A DNA stretch of 64,000 nt from Candidatus Buchananbacteria bacterium RIFCSPLOWO2_01_FULL_39_33 (GTDB lineage: Bacteria; Patescibacteriota; Patescibacteriia; 2-01-FULL-39-33): positions 6,953-70,952 of the forward strand of contig MHIM01000004.1 in assembly GCA_001817505.1 (NCBI GenBank), read 5' to 3'. The translations under genes and the position numbers were made by a program. Position 1 is the first letter of the stretch. Every line of letters starts with the position of its first letter. Positions 1 to 21,603 of this stretch are shown one piece after another. Below the pieces are notes generated by a model. It worked only from the letters and a program-made list of their open reading frames with translations, made no database searches and had not been told where the DNA came from.

Positions 1-79
1 GACTTTCTTGTCGAGCGTAGTGATCGCCATTGTTTTTTCTCCTGGTGTTGGTTGTTGGTTTTTTGATTGGAGATGAAAA

Positions 80-811
80 TTACATCAAATCAGTCACATC
101 AACTGACGGCTCAAACGGTTCAAGCAGGAACAAACCGCCAGAACCCTTGGCTTCGCCTTTCCTGGCATCCAAAAAAACCAGCCAGTGTCCGCCATCTTTT
201 TCTTTTGAAGTCACAAAATACATCAGGTCACCGGAATTAACACAACTATCTTCACCTTCAACTTCGGCATTAAAGGCACCAATATCAACCACTTCCCAGA
301 TCACACCTGGAGTAAGATTTTTGGGCAAAGAGTAGGGTACCGGATTGGTTTGACCATTTTCTTTGAATACTCTGGCCGGTCCAGGCGACTCATCGCTGCC
401 CTTATAAAAAGAAAGTAAGCTTGGTGTATAAATTTTTTCGCCTTTCAACCAAATTGGCTGGCCAGCTTCTTGATCGGGAATTTTAAAAATCCAAATGTCA
501 CCGGCCAAAGCTAAGGCCTTAGAAATTACACCAGTTCTGCTCCAAGGTTCACTGGACTGATGTTTAAACATTTCATTTAAAGTAATTGAGGCCCTAATAG
601 CTCTTTCCGGTTCGCCGATTAGAGTCATCGTTTGATCGGGTAAGGCCTGACATAATTGCGTCTTTTTATCCAAAGATGGAGTTTCAACCAACACACTGCT
701 TTGAGCAATATTAGCATCCCGGTTAATAACAGGAAAATTTCTAAATTTAAAAAACCAAATCAAACCCGCTACCCCCAATAAAATAATCAGAACTCCTAAG
801 GCAATATCCAT
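80..811 (-). CDS. hypothetical N-terminally membrane-anchored protein
   Basis: Complete 243-aa ORF with an N-terminal hydrophobic helix (LGVLIILLGVAGLIWFF). No family motif recognised. Confidence 0.4.
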   Translation of the reverse strand: MDIALGVLIILLGVAGLIWFFKFRNFPVINRDANIAQSSVLVETPSLDKKTQLCQALPDQTMTLIGEPERAIRASITLNEMFKHQSSEPWSRTGVISKALALAGDIWIFKIPDQEAGQPIWLKGEKIYTPSLLSFYKGSDESPGPARVFKENGQTNPVPYSLPKNLTPGVIWEVVDIGAFNAEVEGEDSCVNSGDLMYFVTSKEKDGGHWLVFLDARKGEAKGSGGLFLLEPFEPSVDVTDLM

Positions 812-3656: not shown

Positions 3657-5057
3657 ATGCCTGATATCGTGTCTAATTCTTTGGCCAAGTTGCCGCCGCA
3701 AAATATTGAGGCGGAGCAATCGCTGATCGGCGCCATTTTAATTGATAAGGATGCCATCATCAAAATAGCTGATATGCTTTCTCCCAATGATTTTTATCGT
3801 GAAGCGCATGCCGCCTTATATGGAACTATTCTGGAATTATTTGAAAAGAAAGAAGCTATAGATATTTTAAGTTTAACTAGCCGGTTGGAAGAAAAAAAGA
3901 AACTGGAAGCCATTGGCGGCCGCAGTTATCTGGTAACCCTCACCAACCAAACGCCGTCAGCCGCCCACGTGGTTTCTTACGCCCAAATCATCCAAAAAAA
4001 AGCAACCTTAAGACGGTTGATTTCCGCCGCCAATAATATCCTGGAATTGGGTTACCATGAAGAAAAAGAAGTTAATGATATTTTGGACAAAGCCGAACAG
4101 TCGGTTTTTGCCGTTTCCCAGCAATTTTTAAAAGAAAAATTCATTCCTATTCAGGATGTTTTGTCGGCCGCTTTTGACAGAATTGATCAATTGCATCGGG
4201 AAAAAGGCAAATTAAGGGGCTTGCCGACCGGCTATTCTGACTTGGATAATCTTTTGGCTGGCTTTCAAAAATCGGATCTAATCGTCTTGGCCGCCCGGCC
4301 TTCGGTCGGCAAAACCTCACTAGCTTTAGATATCGCCAGGCACGTGGCTATCAAAGCCAAGAAATCAATCGGCATCTTTTCTTTGGAAATGTCCAAAGAA
4401 CAGCTGGTTGACCGCTTGATCTGCGCCCAAGCCGGAGTTGGCCTATGGAAAATGAGAACCGGCCGATTATCGGAAACAACCGATGACTTCCCAAAAATCG
4501 GTCAGGCCATGAGTGAACTTTCCGAAAGCCGTATTTATATTGATGATTTTGCCAATACTAATGTCATGGAACTGCGTACTAAAGCCCGGCGCCTGCAAAT
4601 GGAACACGGGCTGGATATGGTTATAATTGATTACTTGCAATTAATGGAAGGTAGCGGCCGCAAATCCAGCTTTGAAAATCGCGTCCAAGAAATTGCCGAG
4701 ATTTCCCGCGCTTTAAAAGGCCTAGCCAGGGAATTGGACATACCGGTTTTGGCCTTATCCCAGCTTTCTCGGGCCGTTGAACAAGCCAGTCCGGCCATAC
4801 CAAAATTATCGCATCTAAGAGAATCGGGCTCTATTGAACAGGATGCTGATGTGGTGATGTTCATTTATCGCAAAGCCGCCGACCGGAGTTTTGATATCAA
4901 CTCGCTGACTGAAGAGGAAAAAAATTCGGCTGAGATTTATATCGCCAAGCACCGCAATGGTCCGACCGGCCAAGTTAAACTGTATTTTCAAAGCGATTTA
5001 GTCAGTTTTAGGACATTAGAAACTAAACGTCAAGTGACTGAAAACCCGGAGATGTAG
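3657..5057 (+). CDS. dnaB: replicative DNA helicase DnaB
   Basis: N-terminal LPPQNIEAEQSLIGAIL, Walker A GKTSLAL, FSLEMS, and a RecA-like C-terminal domain. Length 466 aa. Confidence 0.9.
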   Translation: MPDIVSNSLAKLPPQNIEAEQSLIGAILIDKDAIIKIADMLSPNDFYREAHAALYGTILELFEKKEAIDILSLTSRLEEKKKLEAIGGRSYLVTLTNQTPSAAHVVSYAQIIQKKATLRRLISAANNILELGYHEEKEVNDILDKAEQSVFAVSQQFLKEKFIPIQDVLSAAFDRIDQLHREKGKLRGLPTGYSDLDNLLAGFQKSDLIVLAARPSVGKTSLALDIARHVAIKAKKSIGIFSLEMSKEQLVDRLICAQAGVGLWKMRTGRLSETTDDFPKIGQAMSELSESRIYIDDFANTNVMELRTKARRLQMEHGLDMVIIDYLQLMEGSGRKSSFENRVQEIAEISRALKGLARELDIPVLALSQLSRAVEQASPAIPKLSHLRESGSIEQDADVVMFIYRKAADRSFDINSLTEEEKNSAEIYIAKHRNGPTGQVKLYFQSDLVSFRTLETKRQVTENPEM

Positions 5058-5242
5058 ATAACAAAGCTAACAATTAACAAATTCTAAATATTAATATCGA
5101 AATATTGAACAAATCATAAATTAGAAACTCTAAATATTTTTAAAATTTAAGATTTGAAATTTGTTTCTAATTTGAGATTTCGAATTTAAGATTTATATTA
5201 TTAATTATTATTTTTTTATTTTATTATTTATTATTAACATTT

Positions 5243-5527
5243 ATGTTCAACAAACTTAAGCAGATACAAGAATTAAAATCCCAGGCCAACCAAATAAAAA
5301 AAGCCCTTTCAGCAGAAACAGTTGAAGGTTCTGGCGGCTGGGGCAAAATCAAAATAACCATGGACGGTAATCAGGAAATTAAAAAAGTTGAAATAAACGA
5401 TGAGCTTTTAAAAGATAAAGTTAAATTGGAAAGCGCTGTTTTGGAAGCGGCCAATGACGCCATCAAAAAGGTTCAAAGGGTGATGGCGCAGAAAATGTCG
5501 CAGTTTGGCGGTTTGTCTGGATTATAA
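5243..5527 (+). CDS. ybaB: YbaB/EbfC nucleoid-associated protein
   Basis: 94 aa with the typical YbaB pattern (GSGGWGKIKITMDGNQEI...) and a C-terminal MSQFGGLSGL. Confidence 0.85.
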   Translation: MFNKLKQIQELKSQANQIKKALSAETVEGSGGWGKIKITMDGNQEIKKVEINDELLKDKVKLESAVLEAANDAIKKVQRVMAQKMSQFGGLSGL

Positions 5528-5534
5528 AAATGAA

Positions 5535-6165
5535 AAGAGCCCCCACCTACTTATTGTTCGGTGAGGGCTGGACGCCGCCGACGGGTGTTACCCGAAGCGA
5601 CATCGGGCTTTTAGGAAGGAGTGCCGGCAGATGAAAGCCGGGAGCGGGCAGGAGAAGCGAGAAATTCATATCCCGTCCCCTGTATGTTACAGAATCAAGC
5701 GAGCCGATTGCCACTTGTTCATCTGCATGCTTGCAGCAGATCGGTTATGTCCGACGCTCAATTCCTGGCCTACTGGCTTGATACACAGACCAAACCAGAT
5801 TCCCGCCCAGCGAACTGTTCAGCCCGCCGGCACTCCAAGCTCCAAAGGAACTGGCACACTACAGTAGTGTGCCACGACCGCGAAAATTAAAATTTCGCAT
5901 ACCTGGGATTACCTCCCGGTTGGTCGCCGCCACATTAATTACAGATCAGCGGCGAGGACTGCGGTTTCAATAGCCCACCAGAGCAAAGCACCAGGCACCG
6001 GGGCGAGAGGCACCAGGCACTTAAGGAGAGAACTACACATACCCGACTGGATATTTCATCCGCACGGGTACCTCCTTTCTTTTCCCTGTTCAACTTAATA
6101 TGTATGTTCGGAGGTTGATCTTTCGCAACCTCTCTGTGAGACATTATATCACACCCATGTTTTTT
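5535..6165. ncRNA. GC-rich non-coding island, candidate structured RNA of undetermined class
   Basis: About 630 nt, far GC-richer than the flanks and full of local hairpins (e.g. cccgaagcgacatcggg). It carries only Arg-rich junk ORFs in several frames and lies between ybaB and recR. Confidence 0.3.
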
Positions 6166-6229
6166 TGTCAATGCCACTTTGTTAAAAACTATCAAAAATG
6201 ACTAAAATTAGATAAAAATTAGATAAAAA

Positions 6230-6829
6230 ATGAAATATCCTTTAATAATTCAAAACCTAATAGACCAATTTTCCAAATTACCAAGCGTCGGACCTAAAAG
6301 CGCCGAGCGTTTGGTCTTTCATCTGCTTTATCAGCCGCAAAGTGAGTTGCATGAATTTAGTCACGCTATAGACCATTTGAAAAGCAGCATTAAACAATGC
6401 CGGCTATGTTTTAATTTTTCCGAAAGTGATCCCTGCTACATCTGTAATAACAGCCAAAGGGATAAAACCCTGATCTGTGTGGTCGCTAAACCTCAAGATA
6501 TGGCCATCATAGAAAAAACCGGGTCATTTAACGGTACTTATCATATACTTGGCGGCAATATCAACCCTTTGGAAAACATCTCTCCGCACAATATAAAAAT
6601 AAAAGAACTGCTGTTGAGAATAAAAAACGACAGTATTAAAGAAATTATTTTAGCCCTCAATCCCGATATGAACGGTGAAACCACCTCGCTTTATCTCTTA
6701 AAGCTAATAAAACAATTCCCCAAGATTAAAATTACCCGGTTGGCCAGGGGTTTGCCAATGGGCGCCGATTTGGAATACGCCGATGAAGTGACCTTGGAAA
6801 ACGCGCTTAAAGATAGGAAAGAGTTATAA
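6230..6829 (+). CDS. recR: recombination protein RecR
   Basis: LPSVGPKSAERLVFHLL helix-hairpin-helix, a C4 zinc finger CRLCFNFSESDPCYIC, and a Toprim region. Confidence 0.9.
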   Translation: MKYPLIIQNLIDQFSKLPSVGPKSAERLVFHLLYQPQSELHEFSHAIDHLKSSIKQCRLCFNFSESDPCYICNNSQRDKTLICVVAKPQDMAIIEKTGSFNGTYHILGGNINPLENISPHNIKIKELLLRIKNDSIKEIILALNPDMNGETTSLYLLKLIKQFPKIKITRLARGLPMGADLEYADEVTLENALKDRKEL

Positions 6830-6857
6830 AAAAAATCCGCTGTTATAGCGGATTTTT

Positions 6858-7160
6858 TTAGATCTTGATAATTTCTATTTCATTGAATTCCTGGCGATGG
6901 CCGAATTTTTTAGCTTGCCTGGTCTTAGGTTTATATTTGACGCCCCGAACTTTATCGCTCCGATCCAATCTTAAAATAGTGCCCTCAACTTTATCAGCTA
7001 AAGTCGGCAGGCCGATTTCTACCTTCTCACCGTCAGCAATAAGCAAGGTGTCAAATTTTACTTTTTGGCCGACTGCGATGTTAAGCTTCTCAACCTTAAT
7101 CTTATCTTTGGCTTTAACCACATATTGCTTGCCGCCGGTTTTAATAACTGCCATTTTCAT
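6858..7160 (-). CDS. rplU: 50S ribosomal protein L21 (bL21)
   Basis: MKMAVIKTGGKQYVVKAKDKIKVEKL... is a typical L21 N-terminus. Length 100 aa. Confidence 0.85.
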   Translation of the reverse strand: MKMAVIKTGGKQYVVKAKDKIKVEKLNIAVGQKVKFDTLLIADGEKVEIGLPTLADKVEGTILRLDRSDKVRGVKYKPKTRQAKKFGHRQEFNEIEIIKI

Positions 7161-7286
7161 AATTTCACTGGAAAATATAATTTAAAATAACCATTTCATC
7201 TTACCTTATTTTAACCTGATTGTCAAACGCCAGCCATCCCATTTTAACCTGACTCCCAAAAGAGAGAGATTTTCCTTAATAATAAA

Positions 7287-7766
7287 TTAAATATCAAAGT
7301 CAACCTTATCACCCACTCTAATCCCATACTTTTCCACCAAACCGGCATTGATTTCTAAGACATAATTAACAAAGGCCCTGGGTTGATAAATCGGCAGATC
7401 GACCTCACCGGCAACTGGGTTGAGATTTTTTTCATAGCCCACCACCATGTCGTCTTTGATCCAAATAATATCAATGGGAAATTTCATATCTTTCATCCAG
7501 AAAGTGGGAATCAGAGACCTTTCATAAACAAATAACAAGCCATTTTTTTCTGGTAATTTTTTTCTCTGGCTTAGGCCAATAGTTTTTTCCTTGGCAGTTT
7601 TAGCTAATTCAATATTGAACTTTTGTTCGGCTATAACAACTGCCCGCTGATTGGCTGACTGGAAAAAATAATTAATCAAAAAAGATAAGACCAGCGTTAA
7701 AATGATTAATAAAAATATGATTGTAAGCCGGCTTGATAATTTTGGGTTTTTAGGTTTTGGAAACAT
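7287..7766 (-). CDS. DUF192 (COG1430) family protein, membrane-anchored
   Basis: N-terminal TM helix. The MKDMKFPIDIIWIKDDMVV and PVAGEV motifs are characteristic of DUF192. Confidence 0.5.
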   Translation of the reverse strand: MFPKPKNPKLSSRLTIIFLLIILTLVLSFLINYFFQSANQRAVVIAEQKFNIELAKTAKEKTIGLSQRKKLPEKNGLLFVYERSLIPTFWMKDMKFPIDIIWIKDDMVVGYEKNLNPVAGEVDLPIYQPRAFVNYVLEINAGLVEKYGIRVGDKVDFDI

Positions 7767-8817
7767 CTTGAGAGGATTTTTTATAAACTACCAAAATAAT
7801 TACCGACATCAGCGCTATTAGCGCTATCAAGCCGATTAATTTGCCCAAGCTGCCACTAACCACGGCCACTAAGCCAAAAATAATAGCCAATAAATAAAGA
7901 AATAGGACGGCCTCCCGATGCTTGAAACCAGCCATCAGTAACCTGAAATGAAGATGTTTTTTATCAGCGTGGGAAAAGGGTGATTCCCGCTTGATTATTC
8001 GACTAGCCATCACCAGTAAAACATCCAAAGCAGGAATGCCGACCACTAAAAGAGTAGTAGCTATTTTAGACCCTGATATTATGGATAAAACGCCAAGCAT
8101 AAAACCCATAAAAAGACTGCCGCTTTCGCCTAAAAATATCTTAGCCGGATGCCAATTAAAAAACAAAAAACCGCTTGAGGCCCCCAAAAGCAACAAGGCC
8201 CAGATACCAGTGGCCGACAAATATAAATCCCAATCCAAACTCAATGCAAAGATCATGATGGCCGCAATAGCGGTAATACCAGCCACTAAGCCGTCCAAGC
8301 CGTCTAAGAGTTTGGTAGTGTAGATAATAGCCATCAGCCAAATAAATGAGAGCGCGCCGCCTAAAACCGGAGCCAGATAGATAATGGCATTTTCAGAAGT
8401 GCCCAAAGGATTGGTAATATAAGAAATTCTGATGCCGGCTAAAACTGTCAGACCGCTGGCTAATAATGGCCAAATTATTTGTTGCCAAGGCAAAAGGCGA
8501 TATTTATCATCAAGCGTGCCGCCAATCATAATCAGTAAACCAGCTAAAAATACAACTGCTATGAATTGATCGGAAATTTTAGAAAAATCAGCCAAGTTAT
8601 ACCAGCGGAAAATAATCAAGGGAACAAAAACTGATAAAAAAACAGCCCAGCCGCCCAAAAGCGCCACGTCTTTTTTATGAATTTTCCTATCAGCCGAAGC
8701 CGGCTGGTCTAAAATCCTAAAATGAAAAGAAATTTTAATCATTAGCGGGGCCAGCGCCAAAGACATCAGTAGACTGATTGTCAGAGCTAAAAAATAAATT
8801 GGATTGATAATGGCCAT
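7750..8817 (-). CDS. glycosyltransferase family 4 polyprenyl-phosphate sugar-1-phosphate transferase (WecA/TagO/MraY-like)
   Basis: Polytopic membrane protein with DDKYRL, LDGLDGLVAG and a C-terminal HLHFRLLMAGFKHREAV motif resembling WecA/TagO. Confidence 0.7.
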   Translation of the reverse strand: MAIINPIYFLALTISLLMSLALAPLMIKISFHFRILDQPASADRKIHKKDVALLGGWAVFLSVFVPLIIFRWYNLADFSKISDQFIAVVFLAGLLIMIGGTLDDKYRLLPWQQIIWPLLASGLTVLAGIRISYITNPLGTSENAIIYLAPVLGGALSFIWLMAIIYTTKLLDGLDGLVAGITAIAAIMIFALSLDWDLYLSATGIWALLLLGASSGFLFFNWHPAKIFLGESGSLFMGFMLGVLSIISGSKIATTLLVVGIPALDVLLVMASRIIKRESPFSHADKKHLHFRLLMAGFKHREAVLFLYLLAIIFGLVAVVSGSLGKLIGLIALIALMSVIILVVYKKSSQDVSKT

Positions 8818-21070: not shown

Positions 21071-21596
21071 GTTCAAACAAGTTGGATGGTTGCTCTGATG
21101 CCGTCAATTGGCGGAATATCGGAGAGGAAAGTCCGAACACTCTTTGATAATTTATCAATATTTATCAATGTCATGGTAGTGGGTAACGCCCACCGGCTAG
21201 ATTGCAAAATATAGTCAGGACCAGTTCCACAGAGACAATACTAACCAGTACTACGCATTAGAAATCCTAAATCCAAAAATACAAACCCCAAATAAATTAA
21301 TTCAAAAAATAAAAATTGAATTCAAAATTGGGAGTTGGAAATTTGGTGCTTGGAATTTCCACTGCGTGGTAGTGGTAAAAGGTGAAAAGTGTTATGATGT
21401 TTTGGGATTAAGCAAGGGATATCCCCTTAGCCCAAAGCTACATGACTCAACTGTCGGCAACCGGCAGTTTGTGGTAAACTCTACCTGGTGCAACCTCAAA
21501 TATAGTAGAGGGCTGGAGCTTGCCAGCAATGACAAGCCAAGATAGATAACCATCTCCCTAACAGGAACAGAATTCGGCTTACAGGCTTGTTTGAAC
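21071..21596 (+). ncRNA. rnpB: RNase P RNA (bacterial type A) with a large AT-rich internal expansion
   Basis: P4 strands GAGGAAAGTCCGAAC and ACAGAATTCGGCTTACAGGC are present. P1 pairs gttcaaacaag (21071..) with cttgtttgaac (..21596). A GGTAACGCCCACC module is also seen. Confidence 0.8.
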
Positions 21597-21603
21597 AAAA
21601 AAA

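Follow-up and report, generated by a model that had tools for sequence, protein, structure and literature searches.

A GC-rich island between ybaB and recR

The locus described here is the spacer between ybaB and recR in a stretch of 64,000 nucleotides (nt) from Candidatus Buchananbacteria bacterium RIFCSPLOWO2_01_FULL_39_33 (contig MHIM01000004.1, positions 6,953 to 70,952; hereafter the window, with positions counted from its first letter). A preliminary description, made from the sequence alone, had pointed to an island rich in G and C (GC) at 5535-6165 that lacked real open reading frames (ORFs) and probably encoded a structured RNA of unassigned class, with partial likenesses to signal recognition particle (SRP) RNA and transfer-messenger RNA (tmRNA). 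Our results agree with the GC-rich, ORF-free island and with the structured RNA, and point to a minus-strand RNA gene with a very short conserved ORF (mini-ORF) near its predicted 5' end (Table 1).

The island occupies window positions 5528-6171, promoter included, and reaches slightly past the limits first given. Its GC content, in 200-nt windows from about 5500 to 6100, was 0.525-0.56, compared with 0.17 at 5100-5299, 0.30 at 6100-6299 and 39.8% for the window overall, and none of the remaining ORF-free gaps of 150 nt or longer in the window was above 0.42 GC. Only four ORFs of 55-89 amino acids could be found in the island, overlapping and on both strands, and none of the four had a Pfam match at E<=0.1. 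The islands of relatives contained many insertions and deletions that were not multiples of three, and the island ORFs were not conserved among them. A protein gene or pseudogene was rejected on the basis of the missing Pfam match, the absence of a conserved long ORF, the non-triplet indels and the range of RNA lengths, from approximately 338 nt (locus L117) to more than 968 nt (L121, incomplete). The hairpins quoted in the preliminary description do exist: cccgaagcgacatcggg is the 3' hairpin of Table 1, and the 3' strand of the long-range helix lies in the ggcttt...aaagcc region.

Table 1. Positions of features at the ybaB-recR locus of the window
Feature	Position	Strand	Details
Predicted sigma-70 promoter	6143..6171	-	-35 TTGACA (6171-6166), 17-nt spacer with TG extension, -10 TATAAT (6148-6143); 12/12 consensus
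Predicted primary transcript, ~609 nt	5528..6136	-	bounds from promoter to terminator
5'-terminal hairpin	6111..6134	-	GAGAGGUUG...CAACCUC; predicted fold
Shine-Dalgarno sequence	6070..6078	-	AAAGGAGGU; 11 nt upstream of AUG
Ribosome-binding-site hairpin	6025..6075	-	5' arm Shine-Dalgarno, spacer and AUG; 3' arm ORF and CUCUCC; local fold -17.0 kcal/mol; predicted unpaired probability 0.17 (Shine-Dalgarno) and 0.12 (AUG), mean 0.35 for the RNA
Mini-ORF	6033..6059	-	ATG AAA TAT CCA GTC GGG TAT GTG TAG; would encode MKYPVGYV
Single-stranded motif	5959..5968	-	GAAACCGCAG; family consensus AAACCGCA; in most clade-A members
Central conserved block	5853..5917	-	hairpins Ha 5905-5917, Hb 5880-5898, Hc 5853-5873; GGUCGUGG 5872-5879
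Long-range helix, 5' strand	5826..5836	-	GGAGUGCCGGC; pairs with 5618-5628
Variable multi-hairpin domain	5629..5825	-	enclosed by long-range helix
Long-range helix, 3' strand	5618..5628	-	GCCGGCACUCC, then UUCC; resembles SRP helix 8 when read on the plus strand
3' hairpin	5591..5607	-	CCCGAUGUCGCUUCGGG; predicted fold
Intrinsic terminator	5528..5569	-	10-bp GC-rich stem, then CUCUUUUCAUUUU; local fold -19.5 kcal/mol
ybaB	5243-5527	+	flanks island
recR	6230-6829	+	flanks island

A predicted transcription unit on the minus strand

Transcription from the predicted promoter would start near position 6136 on the minus strand, and the arrangement TTGACA-17-TAnnnT could be identified at the equivalent place in every relative with enough upstream sequence. 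At the opposite end, hairpin and U-run counterparts of the terminator were found in relatives, and no U-run follows the terminator stem on the plus strand. The minimum free energy of the minus strand was -259.6 kcal/mol (z -6.5 vs dinucleotide shuffles) and that of the plus strand -210.6 kcal/mol (z -4.3). Because the promoter, the U-run terminator, the better fold and a set of U·G pairs that only the minus strand allows (see below) all favor the same orientation, it is strongly supported that the island is an independent minus-strand gene, divergent from recR and convergent with ybaB. Likewise, the predicted signals and folds strongly support an RNA of about 610 nt that would be strongly promoted, bounded by a terminator and conserved in its fold. 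The predicted promoter and terminator, both kept in relatives, would delimit an independent transcript of the kind expected for a dual-function RNA. A leader-peptide attenuator is not supported: no gene was found downstream on the minus strand, where ybaB is convergent and lies directly after the terminator, and the distance from the mini-ORF to the terminator is approximately 470 nt.

The preliminary description had also suggested that the island might contain more than one RNA. One consensus promoter and one strong terminator imply, most simply, a single transcript. A weak internal terminator-like hairpin could yield a shorter form. This perfect 10-bp hairpin (GGCACACUAC/GUAGUGUGCC, 5852-5874, minus strand) is specific to the window RNA and was flagged as terminator-like; its U-tract is weak (GUUCCUUUGG), and an RNA of approximately 285 nt could be formed by termination there.

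Homologs in related genomes and metagenomes

A RecR-based scan of species-representative genomes placed the window in Candidatus Buchananbacteria (Patescibacteria) and revealed comparable islands at four loci (L001, L006, L011 and L012). Further loci were obtained by exact look-ups of close RecR homologs and by a metagenome scan with the mini-ORF pattern. When the whole island was searched with nhmmer against 80 RecR loci, only one weak match was obtained, though RecR was 63-87% identical. The primary sequence evolves too fast for such searches, and homologs were therefore sought via synteny and the mini-ORF pattern. Five of the 23 matches in the metagenome pattern scan were true members (L081, L084, L085, L093 and L099); the others were rejected as being out of frame, interrupted by internal stops or located in unrelated AT-rich coding contexts (for example, L086 and L098). 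No matches to the pattern could be found in viral contigs.

We could identify 16 distinct homologous RNAs with the standard module (Shine-Dalgarno (SD) sequence, AUG and mini-ORF) and one variant (L115). Nearly all of them are divergent from recR, in the setting dnaB-ybaB-RNA-recR or RNA-recR. The order in clade A is dnaB, ybaB, the RNA on the opposite strand, and recR, whereas in clade B (L011, L012 and L084) the RNA is divergent from recR and its far-side neighbor is not ybaB. A groundwater contig (L120) was identical to the window (100% over 660 nt). L099 carries a GC-rich ORF-free region of approximately 1.6 kb (6150-7800, plus-strand coordinates) on a contig that has sodA-like and metK-like genes but lacks recR. 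Two modules, MGYPSGFV and MSHLSGFV, were found in this region, each followed by a CCCCAR...YUGGGG hairpin; linkage of the module to recR is thus not strict. So far, the RNA family has been found only in Buchananbacteria-like Patescibacteria (part of the candidate phyla radiation, CPR), in groundwater and similar metagenomes.

Several related loci showed features of their own. In L003 and L004, where RecR is ~70% identical, dnaB adjoins recR and ybaB is missing, small transcripts that appear strongly promoted, GC-rich and terminator-bounded lie at the same spot as the island: one in L003 (3450-3905, minus strand) and two in L004 (3285-3960, minus strand). When RecR loci L003-L080 were searched with hidden Markov models (HMMs) of the module and the central block, no additional members appeared, and the L003 and L004 RNAs are therefore not assignable to the family of the window RNA. 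In L001, about 240 nt of additional sequence, GC-rich and full of hairpins, lie between the RNA terminator and ybaB (1-290, minus strand) and may be a further small RNA. In L002 (RecR 84% identical), a run of N at 3883-4000 falls exactly where the island is expected, reflecting a gap in the assembly or masking, and this genome is therefore uninformative as to whether the island is present.

Conserved structure and covariation

The primary sequence of the RNA is nearly unalignable across the family, yet its helices covary. MAFFT and RNAalifold applied to five full RNAs and to a nine-sequence core block gave no consensus structure, since loop-length differences misalign the stems; helices were tested instead on anchored strands, on the well-aligned module and on three close relatives.

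With anchored strands, the long-range helix has 11 bp in 10 clade-A RNAs, with compensatory double changes at five positions (A-U/G-C, C-G/U-A, G-C/A-U, G-C/C-G and C-G/U-A). On the plus strand its U·G pairs would become A·C mismatches; only the minus strand allows them. The domain inside this helix is as short as 11 nt in L117 and as long as 277 nt in L121. For clade B, three RNAs could be aligned well, and RNAalifold predicted 210 pairs, of which 18 showed double changes compared with 8.7±2.1 in shuffled alignments (0/500) and 2-4 in slid controls. The proportion of paired cells was 94.9% (shuffled 93.0%, slid controls 36-46%); as the clade-B structure was derived from the same sequences, this percentage is inflated and the double changes are not.

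Several sequence blocks are conserved in clade A: AAACCGCA; a hairpin followed by CGGUCGUGG; UUUCNGUAG; and CUUUUGGGGUGCCGG. In the stem that precedes CGG in these blocks the sequence changes and the pairing stays, as judged by eye. Within the central block, hairpin Hc contains a conserved CUGUAG, and the Hb stem varies in sequence and keeps its pairing (GCGAAA/UUUCGC, CGAUA/UAUCG, GCGAC/GUCGC and CGAGC/GCUCG; by eye, no statistics). Relatives also have a hairpin that begins no more than about 12 nt from the predicted 5' end, with unrelated sequence.

Two further candidate pairings, of the pre-AUG ACAG with CUGU of block 3 and of AAACCGCA with GCGGU, were rejected as inconsistent across members (by eye). 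In addition, the region of the long-range helix 5' strand (UUGGAGUGCC, 5826-5838) resembles the SD region (AAGGAGGUACC, 6068-6078) on the minus strand, so that the 3' strand CACUCCUUCC might pair with either, which would make a switch.

A conserved mini-ORF near the 5' end

The best-conserved element of the family is GGAGG followed, after 6-13 nt, by AUG and an ORF of 7-12 codons with the consensus M-x(0-5)-[YFH]-[PAQSL]-[SV]-G-[FY]-x-stop. SD, AUG, frame and stop were kept in all 20 modules examined, with UAG or UAA as the only stops, and a frame-blind search with the module HMM returned the same set and no broken copies. The distance from AUG to Tyr changes only by whole codons (-3, 0, +3 and +12 nt). 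The non-majority fraction was 0.17-0.61 at third codon positions and 0.22 or less at positions 1 and 2, and synonymous third positions were observed for Pro (CCA/CCG/CCC), Ser (UCU/UCA/UCG), Gly (GGA/GGG/GGU) and Phe (UUU/UUC). Where local folds differ between clades, the peptide core is kept by other codons (CCG UCU GGA UUU, CCC GUG GGA UUU and CCC UCG GGG UUC). Tandem modules with slightly different peptides were found in L116, L111, L123 and L099.

The same segment is part of a hairpin at the ribosome-binding site (RBS). AUG and the Pro/Ser codons form the hairpin CAGAUGGA/UCCGUCUG and variants of it, and the SD and spacer pair with the Gly, Phe and last codons. Over the 20 modules, 84.2% of cells were paired compared with 76.0% after shuffling and 28-44% in slid controls, and the covariation score was 0.366 compared with 0.206 (0/500). 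By covariation, the longer hairpin that buries the AUG is thus real. A simpler idea, that an AUCC-N4-GGAU tetraloop hairpin is the whole cause of the Y-P-x-G-F motif, was rejected: in L104 and L110 a Pro-to-Ala change (CCG to GCA) breaks the AUCC/GGAU hairpin and keeps a similar residue, and GGU Gly codons also break it. Kept frame and stop, whole-codon indels and variable third positions all suggest translation, but the codons are constrained by the hairpin and the RBS is predicted to be paired. Taken together, the comparison shows a conserved SD-AUG mini-ORF near the 5' end of the RNA that is predicted to be gated by structure. The anti-SD-like ACCUCCUUUCU near 6070 in the preliminary description turned out to be the other strand of this element: read on the minus strand it is the SD AGAAAGGAGGU, 11 nt before the AUG.

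It should be noted that a second type of SD-preceded mini-ORF, with 13-15 codons, was observed in L115 (1178-1400, minus strand) and at the 3' end of L121. Its pattern is (V/M)-K-T-R-Y-A-x-x-G-(R/K)-x-T..., and a UGCC-N6-GGCA hairpin lies at its center. The L115 RNA, at the same locus, has two copies of it in tandem in place of the YPSGF module, and L121 carries both types.

Search for known RNA families

At the gathering score, Rfam 15 recognized only RNase P RNA (21074-21597) and two transfer RNAs (tRNAs) in the whole window, and only tRNAs in 14 related loci. Even at E<=10, models of SRP RNA, tmRNA, 6S, OLE, ROOL, GOLLD, raiA, HEARO and introns were all unmatched in 5400-6300, where the four sub-threshold matches (JA04, snR5, psRNA6 and sX12) were chance matches. 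ARAGORN detected two tRNAs and no tmRNA in the window. Our literature search found no description of such an RNA or of its peptide motif. Absence of the RNA family from Rfam 15 is strongly supported, and we infer from sequence comparison that the RNA is probably a large structured dual-function bacterial RNA of an undescribed family. The preliminary description had proposed both an Rfam comparison and a search for covariation in the ybaB-recR spacer of relatives; the former, on the window and 14 related loci, gave no family for the RNA, and the covariation is present.

The two specific likenesses mentioned at the beginning did not hold. When reverse-complemented, the SRP helix 8-like motif, GGAAGGAGUGCCGGCAGAUGAAAGCCGGGA, gives the 3' strand of the long-range helix, and no SRP model scores. 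The resemblance to a tmRNA 5' end (5566-5585) lies in the 3' hairpin/terminator region, with negative results from ARAGORN and the Rfam tmRNA models; a plus-strand acceptor partner candidate found by eye (UAGCCCACCA, approximately 5958-5967) comes without a T-stem and is not conserved in relatives.

Possible functions of the RNA

Our preferred explanation, held with about even confidence, is that the RNA is a ribosome-engaging dual-function structured RNA. The RBS hairpin would open and a ribosome would translate the mini-ORF; the conserved C-terminal residues might then act in the exit tunnel, making the ribosome pause at the stop codon, or might work as a micropeptide after release. A ribosome near the 5' end, or the nascent YPSGF-x, would determine how stable the downstream structured domain is or how it folds, and this domain would carry out the trans function of the RNA. 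Two precedents make this plausible: ribosomes at the strong SD of the hbs mRNA block 5'-exonucleolytic decay (PMC5737220), and ribosome occupancy of the seven-codon mccA is reported to control a nearby terminator (PMC4231749).

Several points weigh against this proposal. The predicted unpaired probability was approximately 0.19 for the SD and 0.1 for the AUG, with an RNA mean of approximately 0.38, and with SD and AUG mostly paired, translation could be rare. Since the Pro, Ser, Gly and Phe codons are complementary to AUG, spacer and SD, peptide conservation is partly an RNA-level effect. The invariance seen in the 20 modules is also inflated by the regular expression used to tabulate them, which demanded GGN, TWY and a stop in frame. 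The final residue of the peptide varies (V, E, A, P or T), which is unusual for a termination-arrest peptide. Furthermore, cross-clade alignment is unreliable outside the conserved blocks, all sequences are metagenome assemblies, and with approximately 17 sequences from one lineage the covariation statistics are limited and phylogenetically correlated.

A more ambitious version, which we regard as unlikely, is that the family represents a new CPR class of stable ornate RNA in which a structure-gated SD-AUG recruits ribosomes for a fixed peptide ending in Y-P-S-G-F-x, either as a self-initiating counterpart of the tmRNA idea or as a ribosome-sensing RNA. If so, ribosome occupancy or nascent-peptide pausing would switch or stabilize a large catalytic or scaffolding domain.

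The alternatives differ in how they treat the peptide and the fold. It is rather unlikely that the peptide is the product, with the transcript serving as the mRNA of one (in some relatives two) micropeptides of 7-12 residues, for example signaling or otherwise bioactive ones, and the 3' part acting only as a stabilizer. Conservation of the core across clades with other codons and other local folds, together with the tandem modules described above, would fit such an mRNA, and genes so small do exist: mccA is reported to encode a heptapeptide on a short abundant transcript that ends in a terminator hairpin (PMC4231749). However, the conserved long-range pairing and sequence blocks of the 3' part exceed the needs of a stabilizer, the N-terminal length varies by 0-5 residues, the RBS is buried, and no maturation, export or modification genes lie nearby, the neighbors being dnaB, ybaB, recR and rplU.

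It is improbable that the module is untranslated and binds the 30S subunit, an RNA-binding protein or a nuclease, the ORF-like appearance being a by-product of an RBS-like 5' arm. The pairing of AUG and SD in a covarying hairpin and the complementarity of the Pro, Ser, Gly and Phe codons to AUG, spacer and SD are expected under this explanation, as are the F-to-Y change of the window, which covaries with the spacer (GUACCC/GGGUAU), and the second module type of L115 and L121, which is likewise hairpin-centered. What a hairpin leaves unexplained is the triplet-only change of loop lengths and the in-frame UAG or UAA in 20 of 20 modules. Moreover, GGAGG is kept 6-13 nt from the AUG in clades whose hairpins differ, and the third position of the Gly codon varies between A, G and U without a compensating partner.

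Cis-acting antisense or transcription interference, in which the convergent transcript governs how much transcription from dnaB-ybaB continues into recR, or acts on ybaB/dnaB when its own terminator is read through, appears very unlikely. The locus lies inside ybaB-recR, which forms an operon in many bacteria, linkage to recR is nearly constant, the promoter is back-to-back with recR, and the terminator is unidirectional, so that plus-strand transcripts of ybaB would enter the island. However, interference needs no conserved fold, covarying long-range helices or conserved mini-ORF, the L099 modules have no recR nearby, and the far-side neighbor in clade B is not ybaB.

Finally, a divergent plus-strand copy of SRP RNA or tmRNA, or a decayed protein gene, is scarcely credible: the short likenesses and the fact that ffs lies near dnaX-ybaB-recR in Firmicutes would favor the former, but no model scores even at E<=10, ARAGORN is negative, the plus strand has neither promoter nor terminator and would replace conserved U·G pairs by A·C mismatches, and in relatives the motifs are not preserved in that form, while a decayed gene is opposed by the lack of Pfam matches and of a conserved long ORF.

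Comparison with described systems

Like the large ornate bacterial RNAs OLE, ROOL and GOLLD, the window RNA has hundreds of nucleotides, a GC-rich sequence in a more AT-rich host and many covarying helices, and appears to be a stand-alone, lineage-restricted gene whose size varies by hairpin insertion (PMC12286853). It matches none of their Rfam models, and those RNAs are not known to carry a conserved SD-driven mini-ORF; it is recR-linked, whereas they are linked to prophages or tRNAs or to the ole operon.

tmRNA (SsrA) is also a structured RNA with a short internal ORF whose C-terminus is conserved and whose N-terminal length is variable, and in both RNAs a hairpin covers part of the ORF, next to which lies a domain that long-range pairing closes. 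However, tmRNA has a tRNA-like domain formed by its two ends (acceptor stem with G·U, T-arm and CCA), and its tag ORF is entered by trans-translation, with no SD or AUG, whereas the window RNA has SD and AUG and no tRNA-like domain. The tmRNA tag is of the ...YALAA type, unlike YPSGF-x.

RNAIII/hld, SgrS/SgrT and SR1/SR1P similarly combine a small ORF and conserved structure in one transcript with its own promoter and terminator. Their ORFs have 26-43 codons, compared with 7-12 here, and the window RNA is larger than SgrS and SR1 and has no known base-pairing target.

In the ermC leader and in STAB-SD, a ribosome held at a 5' leader ORF or SD protects the downstream RNA. The hbs mRNA similarly has a strong SD near its 5' end, where the ribosome shields downstream RNA from 5'-to-3' decay (PMC5737220). 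The window RNA shares the 5'-terminal hairpin of such Gram-positive 5' stabilizers. They differ in that they precede protein genes, whereas the part protected here would be a non-coding structured domain, and the SD of the window is predicted to be mostly paired.

The resemblance to mccA lies in the very short ORF (seven codons in mccA) and the strong SD, and ribosome occupancy of mccA is reported to interact with a nearby hairpin or terminator (PMC4231749). However, MccA needs the adjacent mccB-E genes and has an invariant C-terminal Asn, whereas the last residue is variable here and no mccB-E-type genes for adenylyltransferase, export and immunity are present near the window RNA. In addition, approximately 500 nt of conserved structure follow the window ORF.

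To our knowledge, only a handful of large RNA classes have been described in bacteria, and we know of almost nothing on non-coding RNA of uncultured CPR bacteria. The genomes of Patescibacteria are tiny and leave little space for dispensable DNA. Nonetheless, a Buchananbacteria-like lineage keeps a GC-rich RNA gene of several hundred nucleotides, with a strong predicted promoter, at one locus. Its design appears unusual, combining a conserved fold with a peptide-conserved, probably structure-gated eight-codon ORF that would be among the shortest conserved reading frames reported, and it raises the question of whether the ribosome can be a ligand or regulator of a non-coding RNA. For annotation, the ybaB-recR spacer of these genomes should be treated as a gene; the reading of motifs on the wrong strand gave the false SRP and tmRNA leads.

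Other features of the window

The spacer between dnaB and ybaB (5058-5242, 185 nt) has a GC content of 13% and contains short AATTT/AGATTT-like repeats and a promoter-like site for ybaB (TTGAGA-16-TATATT, 5172-5199). The RNase P RNA, of class A and on the plus strand, scored 145.8 bits and has 524 nt compared with 367 nt for the model, with large AT-rich insertions that include a stretch of approximately 150 nt in the P12 region.

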